A stretch of 54,463 nt of DNA from a virus (IMGVR_UViG_3300037419_001463:1-54463), one strand, 5' to 3'. Shown: positions 22,450 through 42,501, counted from the stretch's first letter. Notes: generated by a model not told the origin, from the sequence alone. Numbers and translations are program-made.

Positions 22450-22495
22450 GCTGAATCCCTTTCGATGGTGGAGAGATGCGGGTTGCGGTCGAGTG

Positions 22496-24971: not shown

Positions 24972-24991
24972 GTCTGCGTCCTCCGGTGCCA

Positions 24992-25357: not shown

Positions 25358-25547
25358 ACCCGCGTGGTCGGGAGGATGGACTCCTCCCGGCGACACCCAC
25401 TCCCCTGTCACTCGAGACCCCGTGACCAATGAGACGGTGTCTCTCGTGACCGCCACCGACAACTGGCAGTTGTCAGAAGATGAGCTCTCCCGGCCGCGCA
25501 GGCCTCGACCGGGTCGGAGGCCCAGGCGCTACCGGGAAAGCGACGAG

Positions 25548-25802
25548 ATGGCCGGCATGGTGCGCCGCGTGACCAGAGCCATGGTCAGGCGCGCAGCAGC
25601 CGGAGATCTCCATGCACTCACAGCTCTGAGGCAGATGCGTGAGTACGTGGACCAGGCGACGAGGGCTGCAGCTCAAGAGCTGCACGACCCCATCGAGTGG
25701 TCGGGTGGTTACAGCTGGACGGTGATAGCCCAGGAGCTGGGCATCAGCCGGCAAGCGGCACGCCAGCAGTTCGGACTCACCAAGTCTGACGAGTCAGACT
25801 GA
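25548..25802 (+). CDS. helix-turn-helix DNA-binding protein (84 aa; start may lie further upstream)
   Basis: HTH SWTVIAQELGISRQAARQQFG. ATG 25548 lies 8 nt after GGAAAG. The N-terminal part of track ORF 25320.. is a translation of the GTGACTAC repeats (VTT...) and is not credible as coding. Confidence 0.55.
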   Translation: MAGMVRRVTRAMVRRAAAGDLHALTALRQMREYVDQATRAAAQELHDPIEWSGGYSWTVIAQELGISRQAARQQFGLTKSDESD

Positions 25803-25988
25803 TCACCGCGCTACCGCTTGGACAGCCGAGTCATAGAATCCGGCAACTCCAAAAGAAACTGCATGCGTACGCACACCTTGTCGTATGACGATCGGCCGCT
25901 CAGTATCCTGAGCGCAAGCGTCACGCGACTAGGCGAACGTGTTCATGCCAGCTGTTGTGTCAGCGTCATCACTGCGTGCACATGCACT

Positions 25989-26024
25989 AAAAAAGAGTTG
26001 CCTCCCGGCTGTTAACCGAGAGGC
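25989..26024 (-). terminator. rho-independent terminator of the orphan minus-strand gene
   Basis: Stem GCCTCCCGG/CCGAGAGGC (1 mismatch) at 26000..26024. A6 at 25989..25994 on the plus strand gives a U-tract in minus sense. Confidence 0.65.
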
Positions 26025-26030
26025 ATCTCC

Positions 26031-26273
26031 TCACGCTGCGGCGTACTTGTTCAGCATCCGGCGGTAGGCCTCGACCACGACTCCGTCGTTGTCGTTGTCC
26101 TTCGCCTTGGCGATGAGCTGCTCGAGCAGCTGCATCGTCTTGATGCGTTCCTGGTCCAGGTCCAGGTCCGCTCGTGCCACCTGCTGGTTGGCGTACTGCT
26201 TCACGACGCCGTTCATCGGGTCAAGCCCTGCGATCATGCTCTGCGTGATTGCGTCAGCAAACGGAGATGCCAT
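26031..26273 (-). CDS. hypothetical helical protein (80 aa), orphan minus-strand gene inside the plus arm
   Basis: Internal ATG 26273 lies 7 nt after GGAAGGA. Has its own terminator. The upstream part of the 162-aa track ORF runs through AT-rich non-coding DNA. Confidence 0.6.
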   Translation of the reverse strand: MASPFADAITQSMIAGLDPMNGVVKQYANQQVARADLDLDQERIKTMQLLEQLIAKAKDNDNDGVVVEAYRRMLNKYAAA

Positions 26274-26280
26274 TGGTGCG

Positions 26281-26470
26281 TCCTTCCATAGATGGGAATT
26301 CCAAAAAGTCAATCGAAACAAACGAAACAGGTTTCTAATTTGCATAGATGGTAATTGGATACCTAATACCATATATACATATATAGGGGGTATAGATTGT
26401 TTTGTTTGTTTCTTTTGTATATGTTCCAACCTCACTGAAAAGTTTTCTACATTCGTGACATCCGAAGCAT
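26281..26470. promoter_or_regulatory. AT-rich island with direct and inverted repeats (divergent promoter region and/or replication origin candidate)
   Basis: Sharp compositional drop relative to the flanks. CATAGATGG[G/T]AATT at 26287 and 26343, with ATAGATTG at 26392. GAAACAAACGAAACA (26315) is inverted against TGTTTTGTTTGTTTC (26398). An (AT)n tract lies at 26371..26385. Confidence 0.6.
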
Positions 26471-26752
26471 TCGATGCACGAGGTGGCCGGGTTCGGCCCC
26501 GACTTCGCCCTCGTGACACCCGCTACGGGCTGACTCCCCCGCTCCCCCGGTCTCCGGCGGTCTCCCGCCGCCACAGCCTCCTCGCTGGGTCGTAGGTCGG
26601 CGCAGGGCTCGAAGGCCGTCAGGGCCCGATTCCCGACAATCGCCAGTTGTCAGCCGGGCTAGGTAGAGGCCCGATCTACACCTACCCTTGCTGTTCAGCA
26701 GCCCCGATCGGCGGCCGCGCCTCATACGGTCACTCGATCAGGAGGCGGCGGC

Positions 26753-29700
26753 GTGCCGGAGAAGGACCAGCTCGGTCAGTCGAACCTCGGGCAGCTCGCC
26801 CAGCAGCAGAACCAGCCGGCTGCGCCCGAAGGTCTGCACCAGGCGGCAGGGGCCGCCGAGGGCGTGGTCCGTGGCAACCCGGCCCTGGCACAGTCGAGGC
26901 TCGGGCAGCTCGCCGCCGACGAGGGATATCTCCCGGTCGCGCAGTCCTGGTACACCGGCGCCAACCAGGAGGGGATCCGCAACGGCTGGGACACCGACTT
27001 CTGGAACCGGGCCATGGAGCAGAACACCCGGCTCGGCGAAGAGGGTCTGCTGCACTACCAGTTCGAGCAGCCCGACGCCACCGGCGTGGTGACCTGGGAC
27101 CACGACTCGGCCGACGGCCGGCACACCTACCACTTCGGCGACGTGTACGACAACGGCGTCAAGCAGGGCAACGTCTTCGACCAGTTCGACGAGGACACGG
27201 CCAACCTGATGATGGCCGACATCCTGTTCCCGAAGGAGGACAAGGCCCGGCTGTTCGAGCAGGTCGAGGTCGACCCCCAGACCGGGAAGATCACCGACAC
27301 CTCCGCGCTGGCCGCGGCCGTCCAGGCCAAGCGGCAGCAGAACAACACCGACATCCCGAAGGCCGCGGAGGCCGCCGACTTCAACGCCGACGTCGCGGCC
27401 CGGGCCGAGGACTTCCGCGAGGGCCACGTCGACGAGGCGATCACCGCCGGGGGAGCGGCCGGTGGTGCCGCGCTCGGTGCGGGCATCGGTACCTTCGTCG
27501 CACCCGGTATCGGTACCGCGATCGGTGCCGGCGTCGGTGCCGCGATCGGTGGGCTCGGCGCCCACCTGAACGAGGACGCGCTGGTCGAGCAGGCCGCCCG
27601 TGCCTACGAGATCACCGCGATGAGCGACCGGGAGAACGGCACCGGTGCCGCGATCGCCACCGGGCTGCAGCAGTGGGCCGGGTTCGGCGGGAAGCTGATC
27701 TCCCCGCTGTCGAACACCGTGCAGGGCATCGACGACGCCGCCCAGGGCAAGATCGGCGACGGGGTCTCCGAGTTCTACCGGCTCGACGAGCAGGGCCACT
27801 CGGTGGTCCCGAAGTGGGTGAAGGTCGCCGACGTCGGGGCCAGCATCGGCGACGCCGCGCTGCAGTTCGCTACCCCGATCGGCCGTGGTCTCTACACCGC
27901 CCAGATGTCCGGGGTCATCACCGGCGAGGTGGGCGAGCTCGCGCTGACCGGCGGCAAGTCCTTCGACTACACCCGCGGCGGCTTCGACTCGATCTTCACC
28001 GACGATGAGGGCAACTTCTCCCCGACCCAGGCGCTGGCCGGGATCGGCAAGGTCACCATCGACGCGGTCCAGCTGGGCATGGCCCGGGGCCTGATGAGCA
28101 AGGGCCAGTACGCGCTGGCCGCGGTGGGGGAGAAGCAGGTCGGGGGAGCGGGCACGGGGCTGCTCTCCAGGTTCACCCGACGGATCTCCGGCGGCACCGC
28201 CAAGGAGAACACCGCCGAGCTGGCCGGCTTCCGGTTCACCCTGAACGAGGCAGGCGAGGCCACCGGCCGCCGGGCCACGCTGTCGCTGCTGGCCCCGTCC
28301 GAGTCGCTGCAGGCGCTGAGCGCCCGGGTGCTGGCGATGCGCACCTCGGCCAAGAAGGCCGGCGCCCTGTCGGCCGACGACTTCTACAAGGCGGCCAAGC
28401 AGCTCTCCGCCGGCGAGAAGCGGTGGACCACCGCGCTGGTCACCGGCATGGGGGAGGGCTACGAGGAAGCGGTCCAGGCCGTGCTCGACCCGTACTCCCA
28501 CGACGCCGCGATCTCGATGGGCGACATCGGCAACAGCGCGCTGTACGGCTTCGCCGGCGGTGTCGGCATGGGCGCCGGTGTCGGGATCCGGATGCCGAGC
28601 TCGGCCGACAAGCTCTACGCGATGGCCGCCACCGGCCACCGGCTGCTGACCGGGGGAGAGGAGCTCACCCGCTCGGAGTTCGACCGGCTCCCGGAGGTCG
28701 AGCAGCGGGCCCGGGCCTCCCTGTCCGGGATGGCTAAGGCCACCGCCGACGCGGCCTACACCAAGTTCGTGGAGGACCAGAGCGCCACCCGGACCAAGTC
28801 GGTGGCCGCCATCCACAAGCTGGCCGACGCGATCCAGACCCAGCTCACCTCGAGCCTGGCCACCGCGAACCCGCGGCTCAACGGCGCGTTCGTGATCTCC
28901 CAGCTCGAGGACGCCGGCCGGGTCGACGCCGACGGCAACCTGCTGCCCGGCTACATCCCGGCCGACGGTGTCGGGGCCTCCGCGTTCCAGACCGTGGCGA
29001 ACATGGTCAACCACATGCGCGGGGTCTCGGTCCAGCTCGAGCAGCTGCGGCGGGACCTGGAGCTGGCGACCGAGGCGGCTGCGGCCGACCCGAACAACGT
29101 CGAGCTCACCAACGAGGCGGTCCGGCTGCAGGGCCAGGTCGCGTTCACCGAGTCGGTGCTCGAGCTCGGCCGCAAGCTCAACGAGGACCTCGAGGCCCGG
29201 ATCCACCGGATGTACTTCGACCCGGTCACCGGCGTCCAGCCGAGCCCGGCCGACATCGAGGCCGAGGCCGAGTCGATCAACGCGGTGCTCCGCGACCTGT
29301 TCCACCAGCGCCTCGACCTCGCCCCGGACGGCCAGCCGCTGACCGACCAGGAGAAGCTGGCGCTGGCCCACGCGGTCGGGATGGTCTTCACCCGGGACCC
29401 GCAAGATCAGGCCGGCTCCTACCAGCTGCTGGTCCCGCAGATCAGCGCCAAGCTGACCGCGGCGAACTCCAACGACTTCCTCCAGATCAGCGCGAGCATC
29501 CGGCCGGCGCTGACCGCCGACCACGACGGCGACAAGATCCGCCCGCTCAACGAGCTGATCCTCGACGACCAGGCCTACACCGCCGCCCGGTCCGGTGCGT
29601 TCTTCCTGGGCGCCGGCACCAGCGTCAACGTCGGCACCCCGAAGTACGAGAAGTGGATCCTGGAGTACCTGGGCCAGGCGGCCGGCGGCGCCAACCAGGC

Positions 29701-32700
29701 GCTGGCCAACTTCGCCGAGGGCACCATCCTCTCGATCAGCGACGCGATCCGCCGCCGCTACGACGGGGTCATCGACACCGCCGTGCTCGACAAGGTGCTC
29801 GACCCGTTCGTCGACGCGGCCAAGGCCGGCTCGGACAACGCCCGCGAGATCCTGCTGGATGGTCTCGCGCGTGAGGCCGGCGGCCAGATCACCGAGTTCT
29901 CCCGTGGTCACCTGTCCAACGAGTGGCTCTGGCTGGACCAGCTGATCCGGGCCAGCCTGGACGCCTTCCAGGAGGGCTTCGCCGCGCACAGCCCGGACAT
30001 CGGCCCGGTCCCGAACACCGACGTCGTGCTGCCGAACAAGCAGTCGGTCGACGTGCAGGACCGCAAGGCCGACCGGGCCGCAGTCACCGGCGCCACGGTC
30101 GGGCTGCTGCTCACCGGCGACGCGCCGTTCCGGCAGTCCCAGAAGCTGCACTACTCCGCGCTGGTCGCCGCGGTGGTCTCGGCCGAGGAGGCCGGCTCCC
30201 GCGAGCAGCTGTTCGCGCTAGCCCAGCTCTACGAGGCGCTCGGCCAGGGGCTGGCCACCACCGAGCTCGACGCCGTGCGCGCCAAGGACGACATCACCGC
30301 CAGGGTCTACGCCAGGCTCGACCGAATCGCACGAGACGCAGTAGAGCTGGATCCGGGTCTGAACCGGCATGAGGCCCTGGCGGTGGTGGCGAACCTGCGG
30401 GTGGCTGACATCGACGTCGCCACCGACGGCACCATCACCCCGAACGGCCGGGAGATCTCCCTGGCCCAGCTGCTGCTGCGCCAGTCGCTGGCCCAGTGGC
30501 GCCGCGAGGTCGACGAGGTCTTCGACGCCAGCCCGGAGATGCAGTCGAAGTACCACCGGATCAAGTCGATGACCAACGCCGACGGCCAGGGCCGCAAGGG
30601 TAGCCGGGTCAACGCCAGCCGCGCGTTCATCGAGGTGATCGGCGCCCAGCAGCTGTTCACCCTGCTCGGCGACGACGCCCTGGTCTTCGGCCCGCACCTG
30701 ACCGTCGAGCAGTTCCTGCGCTCCTACGTGGCCATGGACGAGCACGGCCGGCGGGCCACCGACCGCAAGCTGAAGGGGGAGGCCGCCTACCTCGAGGGCG
30801 ACCGGACCCAGCACCACAACCCGCCGTACGACCTGGACGAGGTCACCAACGGGGAGATCTCCGGGTTCCGTGCCGTGGTCGACGCGATCCTGGCGGTCGG
30901 CCACAACCGCATCACTATCGACGAGTCGGCCACCTCCGACAAGGACGTGTCCAAGCCGCACCTGCACGGCGAGCTGGCCGAGCGCAGCTACACCACCGGC
31001 GACCAGCTGCGTGACGCGGTCGCCCGGATCCAGCAGGCGATGCGGGAGTTCACCGGGCTGACCGGCCGCAAGGACGGCGAGCTGACCACCGAGATGGTCG
31101 AGCGGCTGTTCAAGGACAACCCCGACTTCGAGCGGCTGGCGCTGAACCTGATCCCCACCGCCAGCGCCAACGCGGTGATCTTCCGCCGCGAGGACGGCAC
31201 CGTCGACCTGGCGAACTGGTTCTACAAGACCTTCACCCTGGACCCGGCCGAGGCCGAGGTGCACGTGTGGCGCAACGTGCTGTTCGCGCAGCTGCGGGCC
31301 GCCGGCGTGAACTTCAACGAGGAGGAGGTCAACGAGGGCGACGCCGGCCGGAAGATGGCCAAGCTCGACCGGCGTACGCACCGGCTGATCCAGCGCCTGG
31401 CGCTCACCCCGGACGGCGGGCTGCTGCTGCGGCAGCTCTTCGACCAGATCGAGTCCGCCAAGTCCATGGAAGGGCTGATGCGCTGGATCAACACCACGCC
31501 CGGCATCCGGGGCGAGCAGGCACCGCTGACCGCCTGGGTCGACGACGTCGCCGACTTCGACGCCGACAAGGCCGAGGGCGGCTGGACCAAGAAGCTGTCC
31601 GGCTCCGAGCTGCGCGAGGCGATCTCCGCCCTGCAGCGCGGCGCCCAGAACCTGGTCGACGACCTGGTCGAGGAGCGGGCCGCGTTCAAGCGCGACACCC
31701 GGGTGATCAACGCGATCGAGAAGGATCTGAAGAACGGCGGCGGCAAGACGCTGTCCCTGCTCGAGACCGCGATCGACGAGGCCGCCGAGCGCGTGGTCGG
31801 GCTGGGCCCGTCGGCGATGATCTACCAGACCGTGGCCGCGGCCCGGGGCTTCTACCCGCAGGCGCACACCAAGGGCAAGAACCCCGACTACCTGGACCCG
31901 GCGGCCGCCCTCGAGGCACACCGGGACGCCTTCGGCTACGTCACCAACTTCGAGCGGGTGATGGCCGCGCTGACCAGCGTCAACCTGGACGCGGTTTCCG
32001 GCAACATGTCCGAGCTGGCCAAGGACAACCTGCGCACCATGGACGACTTCGGCCGGCCGGTGGAGTGGCAGAAGCCCACCGCCGAGCAGTGGCTGGAGCT
32101 GTTCAAGAACCCCGACACCCGGCCGATGGCCCGGGCGATCCTGTTCCCGCAGGCGATGGAGCGCGACTTCGACGGCCAGACCCGGCCCAAGCTGCTGGTC
32201 GGCAAGGACCTGAAGGCGCTGCTCGAGGGCACCAGCCACAAGGACCTGTTCCCCAAGCACGGCCGACTGGACCGGGACCCGGCGCTGAAGTACGTGGCCG
32301 CGCTGGAGGCCGAGGCCCGCAAGCACGGCGGCCACTTCTCGGTGCAGCGGCTGGCCAACGACATCGTCATCGCCCGCACCTCAGCGGCCGACCACGTGCT
32401 GTCGACGGCCGAGCTGGAGAAGATGACGGTCGAGGCGTACCGCCAGATCGCCGAGCTCTTCCAGGCCACCGCCTCGATCGCCGCGGCCGCGCACACCCCG
32501 GGCACCGACCCGCTGGCCGAGATGCGCACCAAGGTCCGGCAGGCCCAGCGCACGGCCGCCGTCGCCCGCCGGGTCGGGATGGCCGGCACCGCGGCCGACG
32601 CCGAGCTCGGGAAGCAGACCTTCGAGATCCTGGTCCGTGACCGGGAGGCCGAGCTCGAGGCCGAGCGCCGGCTGCTGCTGGACGCCTCCGCGGCCGCCGA

Positions 32701-35700
32701 CGACCCGGTCGAGGCAGCCCGCCTGGCGCAGGCCGCCGAGGACGCGCTGGCCGACCTGGACCGGTTCAAGACCCGGCTCGAGCTGCTGCTCGACGAGGAC
32801 ATGACCGGCCGCGTGGTCGCCATGTTCAGCCTGCCCGCCGACCAGGCCGCGGCCGCCCCGGTCAAGGACGCGCTGGTCGACTACGTGCTGACCCACCTGT
32901 CGATCATGGAGCGGTCGTCCTCGAGCATGCTGCTGCTCGACAAGGTCACCCGGCAGCTGCAGGACTCCGGCCGGGCCGGTCAGCTCGACCTGAGCGCAGG
33001 GGAGTGGGACCAGCTCTCGCGCGTGGTGATCGCCGACTACATCTCGGCGCTGACCGCCACCACCGCTGCCGGTGTCTCGGTGGCGCCGTTCCCGGACGCC
33101 GACCACACCGAGGACCAGCGGTACTACGACACCACGTTCTCCTACCTGGTCGACCCGTTCTTCGACGAGAACCACCCGCTGATGAAGGCGGCCAAGCACC
33201 TGCACGGGCTGGCCGGCCGGCTCGGGATGCCGCCGGCGGACGAGACCGACGTGACCCGGTTGCTCGACCGGGGGATCCTCGGCGAGTACAACCTCGGCCA
33301 GTGGACCGCCGAGATCCCGCGGCTGAGCGTCGAGGCGAACCAGCGGCTGGACTCCTCGGCCGCCGAGGTCGCCATCGCCATGAACGGCAACGCGCCGAAG
33401 ACCCAGGCCGTGGTCTCGGCCGCCACCCGCCGCACGTTCAAGGTGCCGGGCCCCGAGCTGCTCTCGGCCGCGAGGCTGAACTGGGACCAGCTGAACCGCA
33501 CCGCCTTCGACGAGGTCGAGCTCACCATGCCCGGCGGCGCCACGGCGCTGCGGCCGCTGGCCCAGCTCAACAACCGGTTCGCCCGGTCGGTGGTGCTCAA
33601 CTACGTCGACGGCGCCGGTCAGGCGCAGCAGGTCGACCTGCTCGCCGGGGCTCCGAACCTGGGCCGGGTGTGGCCCGGTGACGAGGTTCCGGCCAACACC
33701 GGCTACCAGCTGATCCACCTGGACCGGGTCCGGCAGGCGGTCGAGGACTTCACCCGGAACCTCCAGGTCGACCCGCACGGCCCCGGTGTCTCGGTGGCCA
33801 TCGAGTTCTTCCACCCCGACAGCCAGCCAGCCGAGCCGGAGTGGATGAACAACCTGTTCTTCGAGGGCACCAGCTTCCGGCTGGACGCCGACCACCACGA
33901 GTCGCTCAACGCCACCCTGTGGTTCGCGTTCTCCTCGATCAGCCAGACCGGGCAGCGCAACGCCCTGGACGCCAGCAAGCTCGGCATGCCGGCCATGAAG
34001 GTGGTGCCCACCCCGACGGCCGCCGACCTGGCCACCATCGAGTCGACCTGGCCGGTGGACTTCTCCGCGATGCTGCGCGCCAAGACCCAGGTGATGCTCA
34101 CCTCCGACCTGGGCTTCGGCAAGCTCGAGGAGGAGCCGGGCAGCGAGTTCTACAACGCGGTCTACAAGAACCTCAAGCTGCGCCACTTCGTCCGCACCGC
34201 CGACGCGCTGCTCACCGCCGAGCAAGTGATTGCCATGCAGGCCCGTGGGGAAACCCTGCCGGAAGAGGCTTCACTCTGGGTCCCGTCCGACGACGTGCTC
34301 CGCTCGATGCTGGGGGAGCAGGGCACCCAGGGCGTGGCCCGGCTCTTCGACGACCAGCTCGAGGTCGACCTGGCCAAGGTGCCGACCTACCGCGGCGTCA
34401 CCGAGACGATGCGGCAGCGGTTCGCCGAGGGCATGACCGGGCAGAAGGCCGAGCTCGCCTCGACCTCGGTGGCGCACCGGGCCCGGCAGCAGCTGCTCGA
34501 GATCCGGCCCTACCTCGACGACGCCGCCCGCCACGCCTACGACGCCAAGATGCGGTTCTTCGCAGACGAGCGCCGCGACGCCTACGCCGAGCGGGCCGCC
34601 TGGTCCGGCCGCACCGGCCAGGGTGGCTTCGACCCGAAGGCCAACCTGGGCCGGGCGCTGCAGCGTGCCGACGGGATGCTCCGGGCCGAGAACATCGCCT
34701 TCGACTGGTCCGAGGCCGGGATCACCTTCATCGGCCCCCGGGTCTCCGCCGACTCCGACCTGGGCCGGATGCTGCTGCAGGAGCTGAACGCCGCGCTGCA
34801 GAACGACGGCTACCGCACCGGCTGGATCTACCGGGAGGGCAGCGAGGCCAACGAGCCGCAGGGCATCCTCTCCGAGGTCAGCCTGTCCGGCCAGAAGCGC
34901 GCGCTGCGCGTGGCGCCGGGCGACCTGGTCGTGGTCGAGCTCGACAGCTTCGGCGGTGACGACGTGCTGGCCCGGAAGCGGCTGGACTACCTGGTCGACC
35001 ACGGCGCCACCGTGGTGCTGGGCGAGGACGAAGGCGGCAACAACCTCCGGGTCGAGATGGCGAACTACCTGGAGTCCCGCGCCTACGAGCGGTACGCCGG
35101 CTCCGGCTTCGTCTACCGCCCGGTGGAGACCAACACCCGCTACCAGAACCAGCGGGCCCGGGTGTCCACGCTGCTGGAGACCCGCGGCGTGAGCTCCCGC
35201 TCGCACGTGGCCGCGCTGCTGCTGCCGGACCAGGCGATCGAGGAGAACGCCGCCTGGGTCAACGGCGACAACCCGCGGCTCGGTGGGATCGCCACCACCC
35301 TCAACCTGGTGCCCACCGACTTCCTGGCCGGGTTCAACGTCCCGGTCGAGGGCTTCGCCAACCGCAGCCAGATCGAGGACGTGCGCCAGCAGCTGCGCAG
35401 CCTGGACAACCCCGAGGGCCGCGACCTGCTCCGCAAGCTGGCGGGGGAGTCCGGCATCGAGCTGGACCAGGCGCTGACCCGGATGTTCGACCGGTTCGAC
35501 TCCACCGACGGTGCGGTGCTGCCGGCCGCCGGCCAGGAGTTCGGCACCGGCGACCTGATCCCGCTGGTCGACTCCTTCGGCCGGATCCTGCTCTACCGCC
35601 ACGGCTACAAGGCGCCGACCCGCGAGCAGCTCGAGCGGCAGTTCGAGCAGTCCGAGGGCAAGAACGTCGCGGTCTTCTCCGCCGAGCCGCAGCCCGCGGC

Positions 35701-38700
35701 CACCACCCACCGCGGCACGGTGATCGGGTTCAAGCCGCGCGCCGGCTACGGCATGGCCGTCGAGCTCGACATCCCGCTGCCGGTCTTCGGCGACAAGATG
35801 GTGCTCGAGTGGAACGGCATGAAGTACCTGCTGACCCCGAAGCCGGACAGCGTGGTGCTCCCCGACCACGGGTTCTTCCCGCAGTGGGGGATCGACCTGA
35901 TCACCAGCGCCCACGACGTCGCCAGCAAGGAGGCGTTCGACGGCCTGGTCAACAACCACCGCAACGCCTTCGCCTACTTCGGTGTCGACTTCCTGCCCGA
36001 CGTGGCCAAGTTCTTCGGCGTCGACCTGCACGTGGCCCGGCAGATCCTGCGGGCGATCTCGACCAGCGGGCCGCGGATCTCGGTGCAGGCCGCCGACGAG
36101 CTGCTCAACTCCGCCCACCTCGGCCCCGGCTTCATGGACCAGCTGACCCAGGTCGCCACCCTGCTGCCGGACTCGGTCGCCAACAACTGGACCCGCCGGC
36201 TCGAGGACGCCGCCACGGTCGAGGGGCAGATCACCCGGGCGCTGATCATCTACCTGTCGGTCAACGGCACCCGGGTCGAGGACGTGCTGCAGTCCGGCGG
36301 GTTCAACGACGACACCGCTGCGCCCGAGGCTCAGTCGAGGCTGATGCCGCGCCTGTTCACCCAGGTCTTCGACAACGCCGCGATCGACTCGCCGCTGCGC
36401 CGGGAGATGAACCGCCGGTTCAACGCCCAGCTGCACAACCCCAACGGTGACGGCACCGGCTACAGCCTGAGCCAGACCTGGCAGTTCAGCGTCCGCAACG
36501 CCGACCGGTCCAAGAACCTGGTCGGGATGCTGCAGTTCTCCGAGGCCCACTCCTCGGGCGACAGCCCGCTGAAGAACGGCATGGCCTTCGACGAGCGGGA
36601 GCGGCAGGCGGTCAGCCAGCACTCGGCCGCCATCGCCTACCAGGCGATCGGCGCCCGCACCGCGATGGACCGCGACGTCGAGAAGGCCCGGGCCTTCGCC
36701 GAGGGCCGCGGCATCGACCGGGACCTGGTCGACGGCGGTGTCTGGCGGCTGCTGACCAACGTCCACAAGGACGACGTGGCCGCGGCCGCGAACTGGCGCA
36801 CGCCCACCCTGGCTGAGGCCGAGGCCCGGCGCCGGGCGCGCGAGCACCTGACCAAGTTCCGGCAGCCGGTGACGGCCGCCCGCGAGCCCAGCGACGAGGA
36901 CGAGACCGGCTGGAACGAGCAGCAGCGCAAGGAGGCCGCCAAGATCGGCCGGCAGATCCTGCAGAAGCTGAACCTGCACGACAACCAGATCGAGCTCGTC
37001 GACTTCTGGGTGCGGCAGATGAACGGCGCCGACGACCGGATCACCGGCAAGGCCTACCTCGAGGAGGCCGCGGCGATCCGGGACAACGTCACCAACGGCT
37101 TCCTGCCGGTGGCCGGCGCCGAGATCCCGCTGCTGCACGTGCACGACCTGCAGCTGATCCACCGGGTCAACAAGGGCAAGGCGGACGGCTGGGCGCCGTA
37201 CGAGACCCTGGACCGGGACCGGACCGCCGGCTCGTGGGACGAGTGGGTGCAGGTCGCGCTCGGCTCGATATTCCTGTCCGAGGACTCCTTCGACCCGATC
37301 TACCGGCCGGCGCTCGACGGGCTGCTGCACACCTACCAGAACGCCACCAAGGCGCTGCTCGACATGCCGGTCTCGGTGGACCGGATGGTGCAGGAGCGGC
37401 TGCTCGACCCGCAGTTCAACGCCCTGGTCGCGGTCTCCCTGGACGCCAACGAGAACCGGCGGGCGATCGAGCCGATGCTGCTCGGAGTCGCCAACACCAC
37501 CGTCGACGACCTGCTCGGCGGTGTCCGGATCTCCGGCAAGTCCAAGTCCGCCCCGGCCAGCGAGCGCGCGAAGAAGCGGGCCCGGCTGCACAAGTGGCGC
37601 AAGGAGACCGGCACCCCGCTGCCTGTCGAGGCGCCGCTGAAGGACATGGCGGCCAACGGCTCGAGGTTCATCGAGAAGTCGACGGCGAGCTCGTCGCTGG
37701 CCCGCATGCTGATCAACGCCCGCGTCGGCACCGCGCTGATCAACCCGGCGCTGTACGTCTCGATGGGCCCGGAGCAGTGGATGCGCGGAGCCCTGGACCA
37801 GGGCGCCAACCTGATCACCGGCCAGGCGACCGACGGCGTGCTGGCCACCGCGGCCGCCAAGCTGCACCTCTCGCAGTACAGCACCGACCAGCTCGCCAAG
37901 CTGTCCCGGCTCTACCAGACCCTCGGTGACAACGCCGACTTCAAGACGATGATCAACCGGGAGCTCTGGTACCTGCGGCCGCACGAGCCGGGTATGAGCC
38001 GGCCCGAGCGGTGGCTGGAGAACTACGCCAAGATCGGCTCCCGGATGCAGGACCCGACCCGGGGGATGAGGGCCAAGACCCTGGCCCGCCGCTACGTCGA
38101 CGCCGCCTGGCAGCACATCCAGGCGACGCCGGCGATGAACGTGATCAGCCTGGACCGGCTGATCGCCGAGCTCTCGGTGAACCCGAAGTTCCTCGAGGAC
38201 TACTTCCCCGAGGCGCACCAGGCCGCCACCAACGCCATCGCCCAGCTGCGGTCGCTGAAGAACACCGTGCTGTCCCAGACGCTGCGCGGGATCTACGAGC
38301 CGCTTTCAGAGTCCACCCACAGCGGCCGGGCCTTCTTCGGCACCGTGCTGCTGCGGATGCCGCTGCTGTTCAGCGGCTACGCGATGAACGTGCTGACCAC
38401 GATCACCGGCATGCAGGGGCTCAACGACGCCACCGCGATGTGGCTGCACGGCCGCAACAAGGGCCCGAACTCCCTGTTCGGCCGGATCCAGGCCAAGCTC
38501 CGCGGCGAGCAGTTCGACCCGCAGCGCGACGCCGAGTTCGACATGAGCACCGTCATGGAGGGCATCGACCTCACCCGGTCCTTCATCCGAGGCGGGCTGA
38601 CCCACTCCGCGCTGTTCATGTTCGGCATGATGGCCAGCGGGCTGGGCCTGTCCGGTGAGGACGACGAGACCAAGAAGCGCCGTCGGCTGGCGCAGCTGCA

Positions 38701-40546
38701 GGGCGCCGGCTTCGTCTACGACCCGCGCCGGATCGAGAATGACTTCCGCAACGCCGACGCGCTGTTCGTCGACTGGCTGCCGTTCAACCTGGACTCCTAC
38801 TTCCGGGTGACCGGTGACGACGCGCCCGGCGGCGCCCGGTCGATGGCACAGGCGCACTGGATGCTCAAGCAGTTCATTAGCCCGATCATCGGCATGGAAC
38901 GGTTCTACGAGACCGGCGACTTCCACCAGGTGACCTGGGGCTTCCAGGACGCGCTCGGCTCCTTCCCGCTGATCAACACCCTGATGTGGGACGACGCGGT
39001 CTCCACCGCCAGCGAGATGGCCAAGATGGCTGACGACGAGCAGAAGCTCGGCGGCCCCTCGAACATGGTGGCCAGCGCCGGGTTCCTCACCAACGCCGTC
39101 GGGGTCTACGAGCGGATGCTGTTCGAGAACAGCTTCGTGAACATGATCTACACCGGCCACGACCGGTACGACCGTGACCCGTACGCGCTGCCGCTGCGGG
39201 ACAGCGACGGCACCATCCAGCGCGACATCGAGGGCCAGGCCCGCAAGCAGAACATCTCGCTGGAGAAGTTCGTCGACCCGGAGACCGGCCAGGTCCGCGA
39301 GGGCTACATGGGCCGCGACTACCAGTCGGGGATGTTGCACGCGCTGACCGAGAACCGGGCCACCCTGGCCGCGTTCATGTGGGCGCTGCCGGGCTACGGC
39401 GACGAGGACTACTGGCGCTACAACATGCCGATCAAGACCCGGGAGATCGAGAAGGACCCGGTCTCCAAGGACGAGGCCGAGGCCTTCGTCCGGGCCGCGG
39501 TCCAGGGCGCCGGCGGGCTGCAGAACCTGACCGCCGACGAGCTCTCCCAGATCTGGAAGAACCAGGCCAAGGCGGCCGGCGTGTACGTCGACTGGTCCAT
39601 GCTCGACGACCAGGCGGCCGCGGCCGAGCAGTTGGGCGCAGCAGGCACCGGTCAGCCGGCCGCGCTCTCGATGCTCGACAAGGACGGGCGCGAGGTGCTC
39701 ACCAAGGCCGGCGCCTGGGGCGTGGTCCGCGGCCTGGCCAAGGGCAGCGTGCAGCTCGGCGACGCCAGCCTGGCCGGCATCTACATCACCCCCGAGGTCC
39801 GCGAGGAGATCCAGAAGGAGTGGATGGCCGAGCTGATCCAGGAGGGCGTCAACATGGGCCTGGACCAGACCAAGGCCACCAGCCGGATGAAGCGGCTCTG
39901 GTTCGGTCCGCTCGACGACCCGAGCATCCAGGGGCTGGGCGACATCCTGTGGAGCAAGGACATCTCCTACTCCGACACCGCCACCTACAACCAGCTGAAC
40001 ACCACCTACGTGATGGGCCCCGACGGCCGCCCGTGGGCCACCGGCTGGACCCGTGACGGGATCGCCGGTGCGCTGGGCCTGAAGCCGCTGAAGCGGGCCT
40101 ACGTCTCCGAGCAGGGCGCCACCGGCACCGACAACCGGCTCAACACCACCGACCTGGTCAACGGGCTCAACACCGGCCTGCGCGCCCTCGAGCTGGTCGA
40201 CGAGACCCGCAACATCCCGACCGACGTCGAGATCGGCAAGAAGATCGAGGACGCGATCAAGGAGGCCTCGGCCCAGACCTACACGCCGTACGACACCAGC
40301 AAGACCGGTGGCGGTGGCTACGGCGGGTACGGCGGCTACGGCTACCGCAGCTACGGCGGCGGCTACGGCGGCGGCGGAAGCGGCTACTTCCCCGACTTCA
40401 CCCGGATGTACGCGCTGCCGAACAACATCTCGCCCTACGGCAACAACATCCCGTTCATCAACACGAGCAACCCGATCATCCGTCGCGCCGACGTCCGGCG
40501 GGAGCGGGTCTGGTCAGAGCGAGGAAGGCTGAAGCAGTGGCAGTAG
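26753..40546 (+). CDS. giant virion-module polyprotein (4,597 aa) with a beta-prime-like DPBB catalytic motif; candidate packaged RNA polymerase / ejection protein
   Basis: Uninterrupted 13,794-nt ORF. GTG start 7 nt after AGGAGG. GC3-rich throughout. The end overlaps the portal start by 10 nt. Motifs are detailed in the findings. Confidence 0.9.
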   Translation: MPEKDQLGQSNLGQLAQQQNQPAAPEGLHQAAGAAEGVVRGNPALAQSRLGQLAADEGYLPVAQSWYTGANQEGIRNGWDTDFWNRAMEQNTRLGEEGLLHYQFEQPDATGVVTWDHDSADGRHTYHFGDVYDNGVKQGNVFDQFDEDTANLMMADILFPKEDKARLFEQVEVDPQTGKITDTSALAAAVQAKRQQNNTDIPKAAEAADFNADVAARAEDFREGHVDEAITAGGAAGGAALGAGIGTFVAPGIGTAIGAGVGAAIGGLGAHLNEDALVEQAARAYEITAMSDRENGTGAAIATGLQQWAGFGGKLISPLSNTVQGIDDAAQGKIGDGVSEFYRLDEQGHSVVPKWVKVADVGASIGDAALQFATPIGRGLYTAQMSGVITGEVGELALTGGKSFDYTRGGFDSIFTDDEGNFSPTQALAGIGKVTIDAVQLGMARGLMSKGQYALAAVGEKQVGGAGTGLLSRFTRRISGGTAKENTAELAGFRFTLNEAGEATGRRATLSLLAPSESLQALSARVLAMRTSAKKAGALSADDFYKAAKQLSAGEKRWTTALVTGMGEGYEEAVQAVLDPYSHDAAISMGDIGNSALYGFAGGVGMGAGVGIRMPSSADKLYAMAATGHRLLTGGEELTRSEFDRLPEVEQRARASLSGMAKATADAAYTKFVEDQSATRTKSVAAIHKLADAIQTQLTSSLATANPRLNGAFVISQLEDAGRVDADGNLLPGYIPADGVGASAFQTVANMVNHMRGVSVQLEQLRRDLELATEAAAADPNNVELTNEAVRLQGQVAFTESVLELGRKLNEDLEARIHRMYFDPVTGVQPSPADIEAEAESINAVLRDLFHQRLDLAPDGQPLTDQEKLALAHAVGMVFTRDPQDQAGSYQLLVPQISAKLTAANSNDFLQISASIRPALTADHDGDKIRPLNELILDDQAYTAARSGAFFLGAGTSVNVGTPKYEKWILEYLGQAAGGANQALANFAEGTILSISDAIRRRYDGVIDTAVLDKVLDPFVDAAKAGSDNAREILLDGLAREAGGQITEFSRGHLSNEWLWLDQLIRASLDAFQEGFAAHSPDIGPVPNTDVVLPNKQSVDVQDRKADRAAVTGATVGLLLTGDAPFRQSQKLHYSALVAAVVSAEEAGSREQLFALAQLYEALGQGLATTELDAVRAKDDITARVYARLDRIARDAVELDPGLNRHEALAVVANLRVADIDVATDGTITPNGREISLAQLLLRQSLAQWRREVDEVFDASPEMQSKYHRIKSMTNADGQGRKGSRVNASRAFIEVIGAQQLFTLLGDDALVFGPHLTVEQFLRSYVAMDEHGRRATDRKLKGEAAYLEGDRTQHHNPPYDLDEVTNGEISGFRAVVDAILAVGHNRITIDESATSDKDVSKPHLHGELAERSYTTGDQLRDAVARIQQAMREFTGLTGRKDGELTTEMVERLFKDNPDFERLALNLIPTASANAVIFRREDGTVDLANWFYKTFTLDPAEAEVHVWRNVLFAQLRAAGVNFNEEEVNEGDAGRKMAKLDRRTHRLIQRLALTPDGGLLLRQLFDQIESAKSMEGLMRWINTTPGIRGEQAPLTAWVDDVADFDADKAEGGWTKKLSGSELREAISALQRGAQNLVDDLVEERAAFKRDTRVINAIEKDLKNGGGKTLSLLETAIDEAAERVVGLGPSAMIYQTVAAARGFYPQAHTKGKNPDYLDPAAALEAHRDAFGYVTNFERVMAALTSVNLDAVSGNMSELAKDNLRTMDDFGRPVEWQKPTAEQWLELFKNPDTRPMARAILFPQAMERDFDGQTRPKLLVGKDLKALLEGTSHKDLFPKHGRLDRDPALKYVAALEAEARKHGGHFSVQRLANDIVIARTSAADHVLSTAELEKMTVEAYRQIAELFQATASIAAAAHTPGTDPLAEMRTKVRQAQRTAAVARRVGMAGTAADAELGKQTFEILVRDREAELEAERRLLLDASAAADDPVEAARLAQAAEDALADLDRFKTRLELLLDEDMTGRVVAMFSLPADQAAAAPVKDALVDYVLTHLSIMERSSSSMLLLDKVTRQLQDSGRAGQLDLSAGEWDQLSRVVIADYISALTATTAAGVSVAPFPDADHTEDQRYYDTTFSYLVDPFFDENHPLMKAAKHLHGLAGRLGMPPADETDVTRLLDRGILGEYNLGQWTAEIPRLSVEANQRLDSSAAEVAIAMNGNAPKTQAVVSAATRRTFKVPGPELLSAARLNWDQLNRTAFDEVELTMPGGATALRPLAQLNNRFARSVVLNYVDGAGQAQQVDLLAGAPNLGRVWPGDEVPANTGYQLIHLDRVRQAVEDFTRNLQVDPHGPGVSVAIEFFHPDSQPAEPEWMNNLFFEGTSFRLDADHHESLNATLWFAFSSISQTGQRNALDASKLGMPAMKVVPTPTAADLATIESTWPVDFSAMLRAKTQVMLTSDLGFGKLEEEPGSEFYNAVYKNLKLRHFVRTADALLTAEQVIAMQARGETLPEEASLWVPSDDVLRSMLGEQGTQGVARLFDDQLEVDLAKVPTYRGVTETMRQRFAEGMTGQKAELASTSVAHRARQQLLEIRPYLDDAARHAYDAKMRFFADERRDAYAERAAWSGRTGQGGFDPKANLGRALQRADGMLRAENIAFDWSEAGITFIGPRVSADSDLGRMLLQELNAALQNDGYRTGWIYREGSEANEPQGILSEVSLSGQKRALRVAPGDLVVVELDSFGGDDVLARKRLDYLVDHGATVVLGEDEGGNNLRVEMANYLESRAYERYAGSGFVYRPVETNTRYQNQRARVSTLLETRGVSSRSHVAALLLPDQAIEENAAWVNGDNPRLGGIATTLNLVPTDFLAGFNVPVEGFANRSQIEDVRQQLRSLDNPEGRDLLRKLAGESGIELDQALTRMFDRFDSTDGAVLPAAGQEFGTGDLIPLVDSFGRILLYRHGYKAPTREQLERQFEQSEGKNVAVFSAEPQPAATTHRGTVIGFKPRAGYGMAVELDIPLPVFGDKMVLEWNGMKYLLTPKPDSVVLPDHGFFPQWGIDLITSAHDVASKEAFDGLVNNHRNAFAYFGVDFLPDVAKFFGVDLHVARQILRAISTSGPRISVQAADELLNSAHLGPGFMDQLTQVATLLPDSVANNWTRRLEDAATVEGQITRALIIYLSVNGTRVEDVLQSGGFNDDTAAPEAQSRLMPRLFTQVFDNAAIDSPLRREMNRRFNAQLHNPNGDGTGYSLSQTWQFSVRNADRSKNLVGMLQFSEAHSSGDSPLKNGMAFDERERQAVSQHSAAIAYQAIGARTAMDRDVEKARAFAEGRGIDRDLVDGGVWRLLTNVHKDDVAAAANWRTPTLAEAEARRRAREHLTKFRQPVTAAREPSDEDETGWNEQQRKEAAKIGRQILQKLNLHDNQIELVDFWVRQMNGADDRITGKAYLEEAAAIRDNVTNGFLPVAGAEIPLLHVHDLQLIHRVNKGKADGWAPYETLDRDRTAGSWDEWVQVALGSIFLSEDSFDPIYRPALDGLLHTYQNATKALLDMPVSVDRMVQERLLDPQFNALVAVSLDANENRRAIEPMLLGVANTTVDDLLGGVRISGKSKSAPASERAKKRARLHKWRKETGTPLPVEAPLKDMAANGSRFIEKSTASSSLARMLINARVGTALINPALYVSMGPEQWMRGALDQGANLITGQATDGVLATAAAKLHLSQYSTDQLAKLSRLYQTLGDNADFKTMINRELWYLRPHEPGMSRPERWLENYAKIGSRMQDPTRGMRAKTLARRYVDAAWQHIQATPAMNVISLDRLIAELSVNPKFLEDYFPEAHQAATNAIAQLRSLKNTVLSQTLRGIYEPLSESTHSGRAFFGTVLLRMPLLFSGYAMNVLTTITGMQGLNDATAMWLHGRNKGPNSLFGRIQAKLRGEQFDPQRDAEFDMSTVMEGIDLTRSFIRGGLTHSALFMFGMMASGLGLSGEDDETKKRRRLAQLQGAGFVYDPRRIENDFRNADALFVDWLPFNLDSYFRVTGDDAPGGARSMAQAHWMLKQFISPIIGMERFYETGDFHQVTWGFQDALGSFPLINTLMWDDAVSTASEMAKMADDEQKLGGPSNMVASAGFLTNAVGVYERMLFENSFVNMIYTGHDRYDRDPYALPLRDSDGTIQRDIEGQARKQNISLEKFVDPETGQVREGYMGRDYQSGMLHALTENRATLAAFMWALPGYGDEDYWRYNMPIKTREIEKDPVSKDEAEAFVRAAVQGAGGLQNLTADELSQIWKNQAKAAGVYVDWSMLDDQAAAAEQLGAAGTGQPAALSMLDKDGREVLTKAGAWGVVRGLAKGSVQLGDASLAGIYITPEVREEIQKEWMAELIQEGVNMGLDQTKATSRMKRLWFGPLDDPSIQGLGDILWSKDISYSDTATYNQLNTTYVMGPDGRPWATGWTRDGIAGALGLKPLKRAYVSEQGATGTDNRLNTTDLVNGLNTGLRALELVDETRNIPTDVEIGKKIEDAIKEASAQTYTPYDTSKTGGGGYGGYGGYGYRSYGGGYGGGGSGYFPDFTRMYALPNNISPYGNNIPFINTSNPIIRRADVRRERVWSERGRLKQWQ

Positions 40547-42501
40547 ACGGGGGCCACGAGCCCATCACCAGCTTCGAGCAGTGGTACGTCGGCTATGACG
40601 CCACGGGCTCACGCGAGCGTTGCCTGGACTGGCGCGGCATGGCGCCGTGCGCCCAGGAGATCCAGCGCGAGTGGACCTTCTTCAAGCGCGAGATGGACGC
40701 CCGGGTGGCCGGCTACGACGTGCTCGAGAAGATCGCCGACGGCGAGGTCATCAGCCCCAAGCCCGACCTGCCGAACATCTCCTCGGGCGAGACCTCGGGC
40801 CTGGTCATGCGCATGGCGCGCAACCTGGTGCAGAACACCCCGAACGTCGAGGTGATCAGCTGCTACGACGACGACGGGGTGAAGGGGATCTTCTCCCGGC
40901 ACATCCTGACCCAGAAGATCATCGGGTCGGACCTGTACTCCAACGACATGCAGCAGAACCTGTTCGCCTCGGTGAAGACCAGCTTCACGCTCGGCTTCGC
41001 GTGCGCGATCCCGGTGCTGCTGCGCGACGCGGCCAACGGCTGGTACATGAAGTACGACAGCATCCACTACCGCGACGTGTTCCCCGAGCCGGGCGCCAAG
41101 GACGTGCGCGACGCCACCATCGTCTACGTCCGTCGCTACCTGACCCCGGGGGAGGTGCGCGGTCTGATCCGCACCAACGCCCCGGGCTGGGACGTCAACG
41201 CGCTGAAGCGGATGCTGCTGACCCGGCCGCCGGCGCGTGAGCAGCAGTCGGCCGCGCACCAGGACAAGAAGCACCGGCAGGTGCCGGACGGCTACGAGGT
41301 CATCACCCGCTACACCAACGACGGCGACAACTTCCTGACCTTCGCTGGCGGCGGCGCGAACCACATGATGCTGCTGCGGATCGAGAAGAACAAGCACCCG
41401 CTCAAGCAGCACCCGGTGCACTTCCTGGTCCTGGAGAAGGACGACCAGCAGCCGCTGGGCAAGTCCCAGGTCGAGCGCCTGGTCGGCCGCCAGGACTTCC
41501 AGGACCTGATGCTCAACGGCGCGATGAAGCTGTGGTACCGCAACATCAACCCGTCGATCATCGGCTTCGGCACCAACGCCGTGCCCAACCTGAGCCCGGG
41601 GAAGTACACCCAGATCAGCAACCCGAACGCCAAGGTCGAGGCGTTCGAGGTGAACACCCAGACGCTGATGCAGTATCCCCAGATCAGCCGGGACAACCTG
41701 GGCGCGATGGTCAACATCGTCGGCGCCCCGGACCAGCAGATGCAGCAGGCGGCCGGCGGCGGGATGTCCGCCACGCCGCAGGGTGTCGACGCTCAGGCCG
41801 CCGTGGTCGACGTGACCACGAACAACTTCCAGAAGGCGATCGAGTCGTTCTTCAGCCACTACTGCTCGTACGCGCTGACGATCTACTTCCAGGAGCTGCG
41901 GTCGGTCAAGAGCGTGAAGCTGACCGCCGACGCGCGGATCAAGCTGGTCGAGGCCGGGCTGCCCACCGAGCTGATCAACGACGACGAGACCCTCGACGTC
42001 GACTTCGAGGAGATGGCCAAGGAGTACTGGGTGCGCTGCGTGCCCGGCTCGCTGACCGAGCTCGAGGACGAGAAGCAGCTGCGGCTGCTCAACCAGATGT
42101 TCGTCCCGCTCTCCCAGGCGATGCCGGCGCTGGCCGCGGCCCAGGACCCGCAGATGCTCGGCTACGCCGCCAAGGCCATGCAGTACATCATCGGCAAGCA
42201 GATCGAGCTGTCCGGCGCCAGCAGCGCCGACAGCATCAGGCGGATCTGGAAGACCGGTGACGTCGAGGAGGTCAACGAGCGCGACCAGCGCATCGCCGAG
42301 CTCGAGCAGCGACTCGACGGATTCGGCGCCGACCGCGAGCTCGAGGCCGCCGCGCAGACCACGCTGCTGCAGCAGCTGCAGGAGCAGGTGTCCCTGCTCA
42401 CCCAGAACAACCAGGTATTGCTCGAAAAGCTAGGTGTGATGAACGGGCCATCCGAGGGTAGTTCGCCTACTCCTGACGAATCTGTTCCTTCGGGCGTGTA
42501 A
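40537..42501 (+). CDS. portal protein (by position and size)
   Basis: 654 aa. GTG 8 nt after GAGGAAGG. Immediately upstream of the capsid gene. C-terminal coiled coil and acidic tail. Confidence 0.55.
   Translation: MAVDGGHEPITSFEQWYVGYDATGSRERCLDWRGMAPCAQEIQREWTFFKREMDARVAGYDVLEKIADGEVISPKPDLPNISSGETSGLVMRMARNLVQNTPNVEVISCYDDDGVKGIFSRHILTQKIIGSDLYSNDMQQNLFASVKTSFTLGFACAIPVLLRDAANGWYMKYDSIHYRDVFPEPGAKDVRDATIVYVRRYLTPGEVRGLIRTNAPGWDVNALKRMLLTRPPAREQQSAAHQDKKHRQVPDGYEVITRYTNDGDNFLTFAGGGANHMMLLRIEKNKHPLKQHPVHFLVLEKDDQQPLGKSQVERLVGRQDFQDLMLNGAMKLWYRNINPSIIGFGTNAVPNLSPGKYTQISNPNAKVEAFEVNTQTLMQYPQISRDNLGAMVNIVGAPDQQMQQAAGGGMSATPQGVDAQAAVVDVTTNNFQKAIESFFSHYCSYALTIYFQELRSVKSVKLTADARIKLVEAGLPTELINDDETLDVDFEEMAKEYWVRCVPGSLTELEDEKQLRLLNQMFVPLSQAMPALAAAQDPQMLGYAAKAMQYIIGKQIELSGASSADSIRRIWKTGDVEEVNERDQRIAELEQRLDGFGADRELEAAAQTTLLQQLQEQVSLLTQNNQVLLEKLGVMNGPSEGSSPTPDESVPSGV

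Follow-up and report, generated by a model that had tools for sequence, protein, structure and literature searches.

What is the function of a single phage gene that takes up a quarter of the genome carrying it? The question is raised by the complete viral metagenomic contig IMGVR_UViG_3300037419_001463, a stretch of 54,463 nucleotides that we analysed as a whole and refer to as the window. Positions 26753-40546 of its plus strand form one open reading frame (ORF) of 4,597 amino acids (aa), which starts with GTG, has no internal stop and occupies 13,794 of the 54,463 bases (25%). We propose, with a probability that we place just short of even, that the product of this giant gene is an ejected internal virion protein of a Burro/EK-type actinobacterial podovirus, equipped with an active site of the virion RNA polymerase (RNAP) type. 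What is new here is the breadth of the gene family, its cysteine-free signature and the candidate for a polymerase-type active site, of which we found no mention in the literature searched.

One answer would be that there is no gene at all and that the long frame results from assembly or from base composition, as high-GC DNA gives long spurious ORFs in several frames, including one of 1,315 aa on the opposite strand. We regard this explanation as already refuted and its probability as negligible. GC content at codon positions 1, 2 and 3 of the giant ORF is 68, 45 and 97%, and the neighbouring portal gene has the same pattern, which indicates true coding rather than a chance frame in high-GC DNA. 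Furthermore, among the matches listed there are 115 independent full-length homologs of 4,370-4,898 aa (median 4,615), from isolates and metagenomes, which align co-linearly with the protein and are found in conserved synteny in the relatives. Together with the uninterrupted frame, these homologs exclude the assembly artefact that the initial annotation of this DNA had named as the circumstance that would undo its reading. The same annotation had described a 13.8-kb ORF without interruption, preceded by AGGAGG, 7 nt and GTG and ending 10 nt inside the portal gene, and this description is exact: the stop codon TAG lies at 40544-40546, the next gene begins with GTG at 40537, and that gene is 53-60% identical to the portals of Burro and MissAmericana.

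The locus has no nucleotide match among 50,697 phage records (megablast). At the protein level 58 phage records match, nearly all of them Microbacterium phages together with one Arthrobacter phage, and tblastn detects full-length homology to Burro gp27, Araxxi gp27 and MissAmericana gp30, with 90-97% of the first 3,000 aa covered (E = 0). The MAFFT alignment gives 35% identity to the Burro protein and 24-25% to those of the EK phages, with 295 invariant columns. By these comparisons the gene is a divergent new member of the Burro gp27 / Cluster EK gp31 family described in 2020. When 1.84 billion representative proteins were searched exhaustively with HMMER, this family grew to at least 168 clusters at 50% identity, and its length is held within ~12% while identity drops to 23%. 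The order of a giant gene followed by an overlapping portal gene recurs in Burro, Araxxi, MissAmericana, Akoni, PhriedRice, ArMaWen and the metagenomic contig L018; in this distant contig and in another, L019, the replication genes run leftward and the giant gene is the first on the right. Identity to the relatives is ~35% for the giant protein (Burro, MissAmericana), 81-83% for the capsid protein, 53-60% for the portal and 48% for the DNA polymerase, and by this measure the giant protein evolves much faster than its neighbours while under a strict constraint on size.

Jacobs-Sera et al. (2020, PMC7302621) singled out the genes of this family, with "more than 13 kbp", as unsurpassed in size among actinobacteriophages. 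The homologs were reported to have no similarity to the N4 virion polymerase and were assigned no function (PMC7302621), and in March 2026 the function of the family was still called "elusive" (PMC13069448). The initial annotation had considered such a protein unusual for a high-GC phage, a remark that does not stand, because the family has been in the literature since 2020 and the existence of such a gene is not new. The comparison with homologous giant ORFs that it had recommended was run, and it revealed a co-linear family with conserved blocks.

Composition provides the first indication of what the protein does. The giant protein has no cysteine in 4,597 aa, as opposed to 74 in 9,535 aa (0.78%) in the other genes of the window, a difference with a chance probability of P ~3e-16; the window's portal has 6 cysteines, the capsid protein 3 and the nozzle-like protein 9. 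Cysteine is also lacking in 92 of the 115 full-length homologs listed. Proteins known to be ejected share this property (T7 gp15, 0/747; T7 gp16, 0/1,318; N4 virion RNAP, 0/3,158; P23-45 gp96, 0/5,002), and a cysteine content of 0.5-1.1% is found in the N4 primase and in the portal, capsid and tail proteins of T7. The validated tail-ejected proteins that we checked are thus all cysteine-free, which makes the absence of cysteine a good marker of proteins that have to unfold, pass along the tail channel and refold beyond the cytoplasm, and it is this absence that lends the strongest new support to an ejection protein. In Burro, the virions contain a protein of ~250 kDa, above any other gene product, which was ascribed to gp27 or to a product of its processing (PMC7302621). 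The characterised relatives are all podoviruses (PMC7302621, PMC8281081, PMC13069448), and from its likeness to them (capsid 81-83%, nozzle 57%) the phage of the window is presumably one as well. On evidence that is indirect but good, the giant protein is likely to be an ejected internal virion protein; its ejection and its processing as a polyprotein are suggested by the relatives and by composition. Virion association and podovirus morphology are in this argument those of the relatives, and ejection, channel formation and polymerase activity are predicted functions.

The databases offer a different assignment, that of a tail tape measure protein, which is how Araxxi and Arete gp27 (RefSeq) and MissAmericana gp30 (GenBank) are annotated. 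The giant size and the helical content resemble those of long tape measures, and PHROG 167 (tape measure) matches aa 228-691 with E = 6e-6. Helical tape measures, however, scale at roughly 0.15 nm per residue. The tail predicted for 4,597 aa would be ~690 nm long, as against about 10-14 nm in the relatives (PMC8281081, PMC13069448), and since a ruler of 4,600 aa is senseless in such a tail, the tape-measure annotation cannot hold for phages of that morphology. No tail-tube, chaperone or distal-tail genes were found near the giant gene among the window genes scanned or mapped by orthology; its neighbours are a non-coding region on one side and, downstream, the portal gene followed by the capsid gene, which agrees with the initial annotation, where a tape-measure context had been found wanting. 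The PHROG match covers the glycine-zipper region only. This zipper, at aa 233-272, is the only strongly hydrophobic stretch of the protein by hydropathy and accounts for the weak match to PHROG 167; it also aligns with a membrane segment of P23-45 gp96 (residues 2821-2852, E 1.2e-3, HHalign). It appears to resemble tape-measure-type membrane segments, as a shared module that is no proof of membership. In addition, the SEA-PHAGES authors report no similarity to known tape measure proteins (PMC13069448). A tape measure is therefore very improbable, effectively refuted by the morphology of the relatives, and the initial preference for a packaged internal or ejection protein over a tape measure is borne out by the Burro band, the lack of cysteine and the podovirus relatives.

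The position of the gene, immediately upstream of the portal gene, which it overlaps and after which the capsid gene comes, would also suit a scaffold or core protein inside the capsid that organises head assembly, whether it leaves the capsid or not. The near-invariant basic C-terminal tail could dock such a protein to portal or DNA, and neither a scaffold nor a protease was identified among the neighbours of the giant gene with Pfam and PHROGs. Scaffolds, however, are small and abundant and as a rule do not stay in the prohead. A protein of 500 kDa that is kept as a ~250 kDa band in mature Burro virions does not fit this description, and a scaffold leaves both the invariant catalytic-type motif and the membrane-type segments unexplained. 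That the cysteine-free signature is common to ejected proteins is a weaker objection, for the T7 scaffold gp9 is likewise cysteine-free (0/307 aa). We consider a scaffold improbable.

Ejection alone does not describe the most conserved element of the family, the motif DxDGD. It belongs to a block at aa 872-940 laid out as R881-x-P883 ... G888-S889 ... D923-x-D925-G926-D927, in which R881, P883, D923, D925, G926 and D927 are 100% conserved in 122 of 122 members whose overall identity is 23-50%. The pattern [RK]xP-x38-48-DxDGD occurs in all 122 aligned members, with DFDGD in 54, DYDGD in 29 and DHDGD in 28. This combination of [RK]xP and DxDGD is the filter that Chaban et al. (2024) applied to two-barrel RNAPs, and it was by this motif alone that P23-45 gp96 was recognised from sequence before its activity was proven (PMC10770324). 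When a profile of 45 sequences (aa 866-972) was compared with 177,635 distinct PDB sequences at E <= 10, 27 of the 29 matches were largest subunits of RNAP, led by phiKZ gp55 (E 5.8e-4) and AR9 beta-prime (E 2e-3), and these two alignments run over 54-56 columns from RxP..GS through D(F/Y)DGD. HHalign against five intact N-terminal beta-prime subunits of jumbo phages gave probabilities of 86-90% and E values of 1.4e-6 to 5.4e-6 over 57-58 columns. A sliding scan, in which 300-aa family profiles in 30 windows were compared with RpoB, RpoC, gp96, the phi14:2 protein gp66 and a jumbo-phage profile, placed all RNAP matches on aa 872-940 only, in register with the jumbo-phage beta-prime, with E. 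coli RpoC 420-472 (E 4e-4) and with gp96 739-797 (E 1.5e-3). The predicted secondary structure at the motif (strand, short helix, loop) fits the beta-prime pattern. As far as alignments can establish it, the block of ~58 residues is locally homologous to the catalytic loop region of RNAP beta-prime, and the evidence from sequence for a polymerase is at least as good as that which led to the discovery of gp96. The notion of combined channel and enzymatic modules, put forward in the initial annotation, has thus found a counterpart on both sides, with the zipper matching tape-measure-type membrane segments and DxDGD matching RNAP active sites.

A separate observation concerns the reference sequences for such comparisons. 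The beta-prime N-terminal genes of phiKZ (record L011, 47923-50761) and Goslar (record L014) carry an intron/HNH insertion exactly at the DFDGD codons, so that the annotated coding sequences of both end inside the motif and are a trap when used as references.

The case for a polymerase, and with it the combined proposal, has to be weighed against a considerable list of contrary results. When the DxDGD columns are removed, the RNAP matches disappear, and the flanking RxP..GS adds only ~8-9 bits; because of this control we have downgraded the claim of homology, the signal leaning heavily on the motif. Only the C-terminal half of the beta-prime barrel aligns. None of the 30 sliding windows matches RpoB, so that no second barrel was found, and RpoC gives no match beyond residues 420-472 in the same scan, so that neither a bridge helix nor a trigger loop was found. 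Pfam yields nothing for the 45 motif segments and nothing at E <= 1 for the whole protein, a T7-like polymerase domain and a murein hydrolase included. An AlphaFold model of aa 420-1619, of moderate quality (pLDDT, the predicted local distance difference test, of 73; 25-row alignment), retrieves no RNAP from the PDB (best E 0.12), although gp66, QDE-1 and hundreds of cellular RNAPs are deposited there, and its motif loop lies below pLDDT 50. Conservation is lowest upstream of the motif, in aa 612-870, which are predicted to be helical. Even the virion association in Burro was judged by the size of a gel band (PMC7302621).

Related searches returned the same picture. Against BFVD, the model of aa 420-1619 matches only family members; it is mostly helical (~64%), and its structural neighbours are only weak helical or tape-measure-like ones. 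Broad 7-sequence profiles of aa 700-1350 and aa 2680-3300 gave no meaningful matches to PDB sequences, and only the narrow, deeper profile of 45 sequences retrieved RNAPs; HHalign against phi14:2 gp66 stayed at noise level. Thus, of the domain-by-domain profile and structure checks that the initial annotation had called for, the profiles delivered an RNAP-like block and the structures neither an RNAP fold nor a second barrel.

Two locations for a second barrel were considered. Single-chain two-barrel polymerases place it directly upstream of the block (PMC10770324), and a barrel just upstream of DxDGD, as in gp96, gp66 and QDE-1, was rejected here because of the unconserved, helical character of aa 612-870. 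The other candidate was a beta-type barrel at aa 2930-3060, where GDK3015...K3024...SK3059 was likened to GDK1065...K1073...SR1106 of E. coli beta; it was rejected. Its profile remained at noise level against the PDB and RpoB, and no RNAP beta chain occurs among the 50 matches listed when the model of aa 2905-3095 (pLDDT 91) is compared with the PDB by Foldseek, both of which count against a polymerase as well. The conserved segment at aa 1109-1134, with its invariant R1127, lies at a plausible distance for a bridge helix or trigger loop, in a part of the model of low confidence. Since the second barrel was sought and not found, we do not file the giant protein as a member of the two-barrel polymerases. 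The beta-type barrels of divergent phage RNAPs are, however, often invisible to sequence methods (PMC10770324), and its absence is for that reason not proven.

These results are what one would expect if the protein were ejected but did not polymerise anything, that is, if it were a long, mostly helical, modular conduit or core that spans the thick actinobacterial envelope, like T7 gp14-gp15-gp16 fused in one chain in its function, with RxP...DxDGD as a relic of a polymerase barrel or as a convergent metal-binding loop whose role is structural or catalytic in another way. The arguments for packaging and ejection hold in full for such a protein too. The helical model and its weak helical or tape-measure-like neighbours agree with it, as do the undetected second barrel, bridge helix and RNAP fold and the loss of RNAP similarity without the DxDGD columns. 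The length of 4,370-4,898 aa is kept while identity drifts to 23%, as expected if physical length or volume matters. On the other hand, R, P and D-x-D-G-D would not have stayed invariant in 122 of 122 members, with freely diverging flanks, if the block were a relic; three independent polymerase families align with it in register, and they do so over 53-58 columns, beyond the five motif residues; and the validated gp96 was likewise recognisable from sequence only by its motif (PMC10770324). We therefore hold a conduit without polymerase activity to be a serious possibility, but one that we would not back over its negation. An active virion RNAP we regard, from sequence, as a tentative prediction that falls somewhat short of an even chance. 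The wider proposition, that the whole family represents widespread and previously unrecognised virion-delivered RNAPs with a beta-prime-type barrel, nearest to that of jumbo-phage polymerases, inside an ejection or channel protein of 4,600 residues in short-tailed phages of actinobacteria, is possible, though we would not call it probable; in that case, the partner barrel may have diverged beyond recognition or may be supplied by, for instance, a second copy of the protein.

If the combined proposal of an ejected protein with a polymerase-type active site is right, infection might proceed as follows. The giant protein would be made together with the portal, as the overlap of the two genes suggests, and packed inside the capsid. 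At infection it would be unfolded and would thread through the portal and then the tail, which is very short, after which the glycine zipper and the C-terminal hydrophobic segments would insert in the host envelope and contribute to a conduit that crosses both the thick Gram-positive wall and the membrane. The Mg2+-binding block R881-x-P ... D923-x-D-G-D927 would then provide a nucleotidyl-transferase activity, most likely that of a virion RNAP that transcribes the first genes to enter and that perhaps helps to pull in the DNA, as does P23-45 gp96. In favour of the polymerase, the annotations of Burro and MissAmericana list no RNAP gene, and neither the scan nor the orthology mapping of window genes turned one up among the genes covered.

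Beyond the zipper and the motif, the protein contains further conserved modules, whose coordinates are collected in the table below. All five landmarks listed in the initial annotation are present, namely the glycine zipper, the DxDGD region, an Ala/Glu/Arg-rich stretch at about aa 1960-2020, the hydrophobic FMFGMMASGLGL and a Gly/Tyr tract. An hmmalign alignment of the 122 members shows G69, G111, G129, D130, G135 and N140 of the N-terminal domain to be at least 98% conserved and E568, E571 and E572 of the acidic block to be 100% conserved. For the compact domain at aa 2905-3095, modelled from a 62-row alignment, Foldseek found no PDB neighbour (best E 0.73), and this orphan domain may represent a functional site or a novel fold. 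Conservation within the protein is highest in the C-terminal 650 residues; they include the hydrophobic helix FMFGMMASGLGL at aa 3955-3966, followed by GEDDETKKRRR, and the invariant elements QLNTT, GPDG and WATG. A profile search with this region recovers only short fragments, from many metagenomes. The basic tail at the extreme C-terminus is a candidate signal for incorporation or for docking to the portal.

Table. Coordinates of features of the giant gene and its surroundings in the window
Feature	Position	Strand	Basis
AT-rich island between divergent arms, ~310 nt upstream of giant gene	26290..26440	.	sequence read
Ribosome-binding site AGGAGG (26740-26745), 7-nt spacer, GTG at 26753	26740..26755	+	sequence read
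Conserved N-terminal domain, aa 60-160	26930..27232	+	hmmalign, 122 members
Glycine-zipper hydrophobic segment, aa 233-272	27449..27568	+	hydropathy, peak aa 239-266
Acidic block GEGYEExxQ, then second Gly-rich segment GxxxGxGM (aa 599-606)	28430..28588	+	family alignment
Block like catalytic half of RNAP beta-prime double-psi barrel, aa 872-940	29366..29572	+	profile searches, HHalign
DHDGD, aa 923-927, candidate Mg2+-binding catalytic loop	29519..29533	+	family alignment
Block AATxGxT...GxxxFRxxQxLHY, aa 1109-1134, R1127 100% conserved	30077..30154	+	alignment; low-confidence model
Compact beta-rich domain, aa 2905-3095, invariant K3015/K3024/K3059	35465..36037	+	AlphaFold, pLDDT 91
Best-conserved C-terminal module, aa 3940-4510	38570..40282	+	alignments
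Gly/Tyr low-complexity tract, aa 4519-4545	40307..40387	+	sequence read
Near-invariant basic tail RRxxxRRERxxSxRGRLxxWQ, aa 4577-4597	40481..40543	+	family alignment
Portal gene, 10-nt overlap with giant ORF	40537..42501	+	53-60% identity to annotated Burro and MissAmericana portals
Major capsid protein gene	42588..43955	+	81-83% identity to MissAmericana gp32 and Burro gp29
Copies of CTCTCCACCATCGAAAGG	19738-19755, 20302-20319, 21994-22011, 22458-22475, 23315-23332	minus	<=3 mismatches

The giant gene opens the rightward, structural arm of the genome, opposite a leftward arm of replication genes (DNA polymerase I, helicases, a primase-polymerase, a nuclease and an AAA-ATPase). The capsid gene has as its Burro counterpart gp29, which matches an abundant virion band of ~57 kDa (PMC7302621), and is followed, by orthology, by three conserved virion genes (gp38-40-like) and the nozzle-like protein. 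The latter (window 47632-51693; 1,353 aa) is much longer than its orthologs Burro gp41 and MissAmericana gp45, the "nozzle", which cover only 57% of it, so that it has extra domains. Whereas the relatives have tail-fibre and lysin genes between those for the capsid and the gp38-like protein, no orthologs of these were found in that interval here.

Between the two arms lies the AT-rich island that the initial annotation had placed upstream of the giant gene. It holds an inverted repeat (26310-26329 / 26398-26417) and is presumed to be the promoter region; a promoter scan of 24300-26900 found no sigma-70 consensus. Opposite the upstream region of the giant gene sits a small leftward gene (25999-26276 region, minus strand), the counterpart of Burro gp26 by position and a self-contained unit, which extends from the AT-rich island to a strong intrinsic terminator (26025-25999; 12-bp stem, T-run).

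The 9-mer GGTGACTAC occurs in the window in 16 exact copies where 0.37 are expected, in two non-coding clusters (25010-25357 and 53401-53636), with 11 of the copies just upstream of the leftward arm and beside the upstream region of the giant gene. The first cluster contains an 80-nt inverted repeat (25130-25209 / 25252-25331), and the copies form several perfect palindromes GTAGTCACC-N5-GGTGACTAC, among them those at 25134-25156 and 25305-25327. Relatives have arrays of a different 9-mer in the same place, PhriedRice with ten copies of CGTAACCGG (record L005, 1704-2039) and the metagenomic contig L019 with seven of TGTAGACAC (8810-9018). These arrays are probably operators or origins at which a co-evolving DNA-binding protein acts, or else hairpins of promoters. 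Within the replication arm, an 18-nt element, CTCTCCACCATCGAAAGG, occurs in five copies on the minus strand (0.06 expected), and contains the Shine-Dalgarno-like GAAAGG. The single copy examined for its position (22458-22475) precedes the start codon of a leftward gene by 9 nt, and the genes of the replication arm may have in this element a conserved leader or promoter.

The giant gene makes up a quarter of the genome across a lineage of actinobacterial podoviruses that comprises dozens of SEA-PHAGES isolates and at least 168 clusters once metagenomes are included. For the function of this family there are now two handles, the absence of cysteine, which argues for injection, and the invariant candidate site D923/D925/D927 with R881/P883. 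If the polymerase is real, it would represent a new architecture beside the virion RNAPs of N4, crAss-like phages and P23-45, with a link to the enzymes of jumbo phages, and it would bear on the evolution of two-barrel polymerases and on how phages begin transcription independently of their hosts. It would then be the podovirus counterpart of the tape-measure-fused polymerase of P23-45 and would explain a gene that has been called elusive. If the polymerase fails, what is left is still a striking single-chain ejection protein of 0.5 MDa, conserved in length and changing in sequence much faster than capsid or portal.

How does the giant protein compare with systems that are already known? As a conduit, it invites comparison with T7 gp14, gp15 and gp16, internal podovirus proteins that are ejected to form a trans-envelope conduit and of which gp15 and gp16 are cysteine-free. 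These are three proteins of ~2,260 aa in total, one of which, gp16, carries a lytic transglycosylase domain, and they have no sequence or fold similarity to the giant protein. As packaged enzymes, N4 gp50 and, from a crAss-like phage, phi14:2 gp66 are very large podovirus proteins that are injected and transcribe early genes; N4 gp50 is also cysteine-free, yet it is a T7-like single-subunit polymerase, and Pfam finds no such domain in the giant protein. The best sequence match for the block RxP...GS...D(F/Y)DGD is to phiKZ gp55 and AR9 beta-prime (PDB 7OGP, 7S00/7S01), although the jumbo-phage RNAPs are assembled from four or five individual chains, among which beta-type partners can be recognised, and the likeness is limited to 57-58 columns.

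A closer parallel is P23-45 gp96, which is likewise a giant (5,002 aa), cysteine-free virion protein with a similar glycine zipper, and whose RxP-x35-DFDGD aligns with the RxP-x39-DHDGD of the giant protein over 58 columns. This protein of a Thermus siphovirus differs in being the true tape measure of an 800-nm tail, in a context of tail genes, with a metallopeptidase domain, and its N-terminal polymerase, with both barrels within residues 327-1124, is proven to be active (PMC10770324). The giant protein is of podovirus type and abuts the portal gene; no second barrel was found in it, and its polymerase activity is putative. Closest of all are the giant proteins of Burro (gp27), Araxxi (gp27), the EK phages ArMaWen, Akoni and PhriedRice (gp31/gp32) and MissAmericana (gp30), which are co-linear with it, measure ~4,400-4,600 aa and take up ~25% of a 54-kb genome. 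The protein of the window, known here from a metagenomic contig alone, is slightly longer than those of the isolates, from which it has diverged to 24-35% identity with no detectable similarity to deposited phages at the DNA level, and it shares with these giants its place as first gene of the rightward arm, the overlap with the portal gene, the divergent replication arm, the absence of cysteine and the same invariant motifs.

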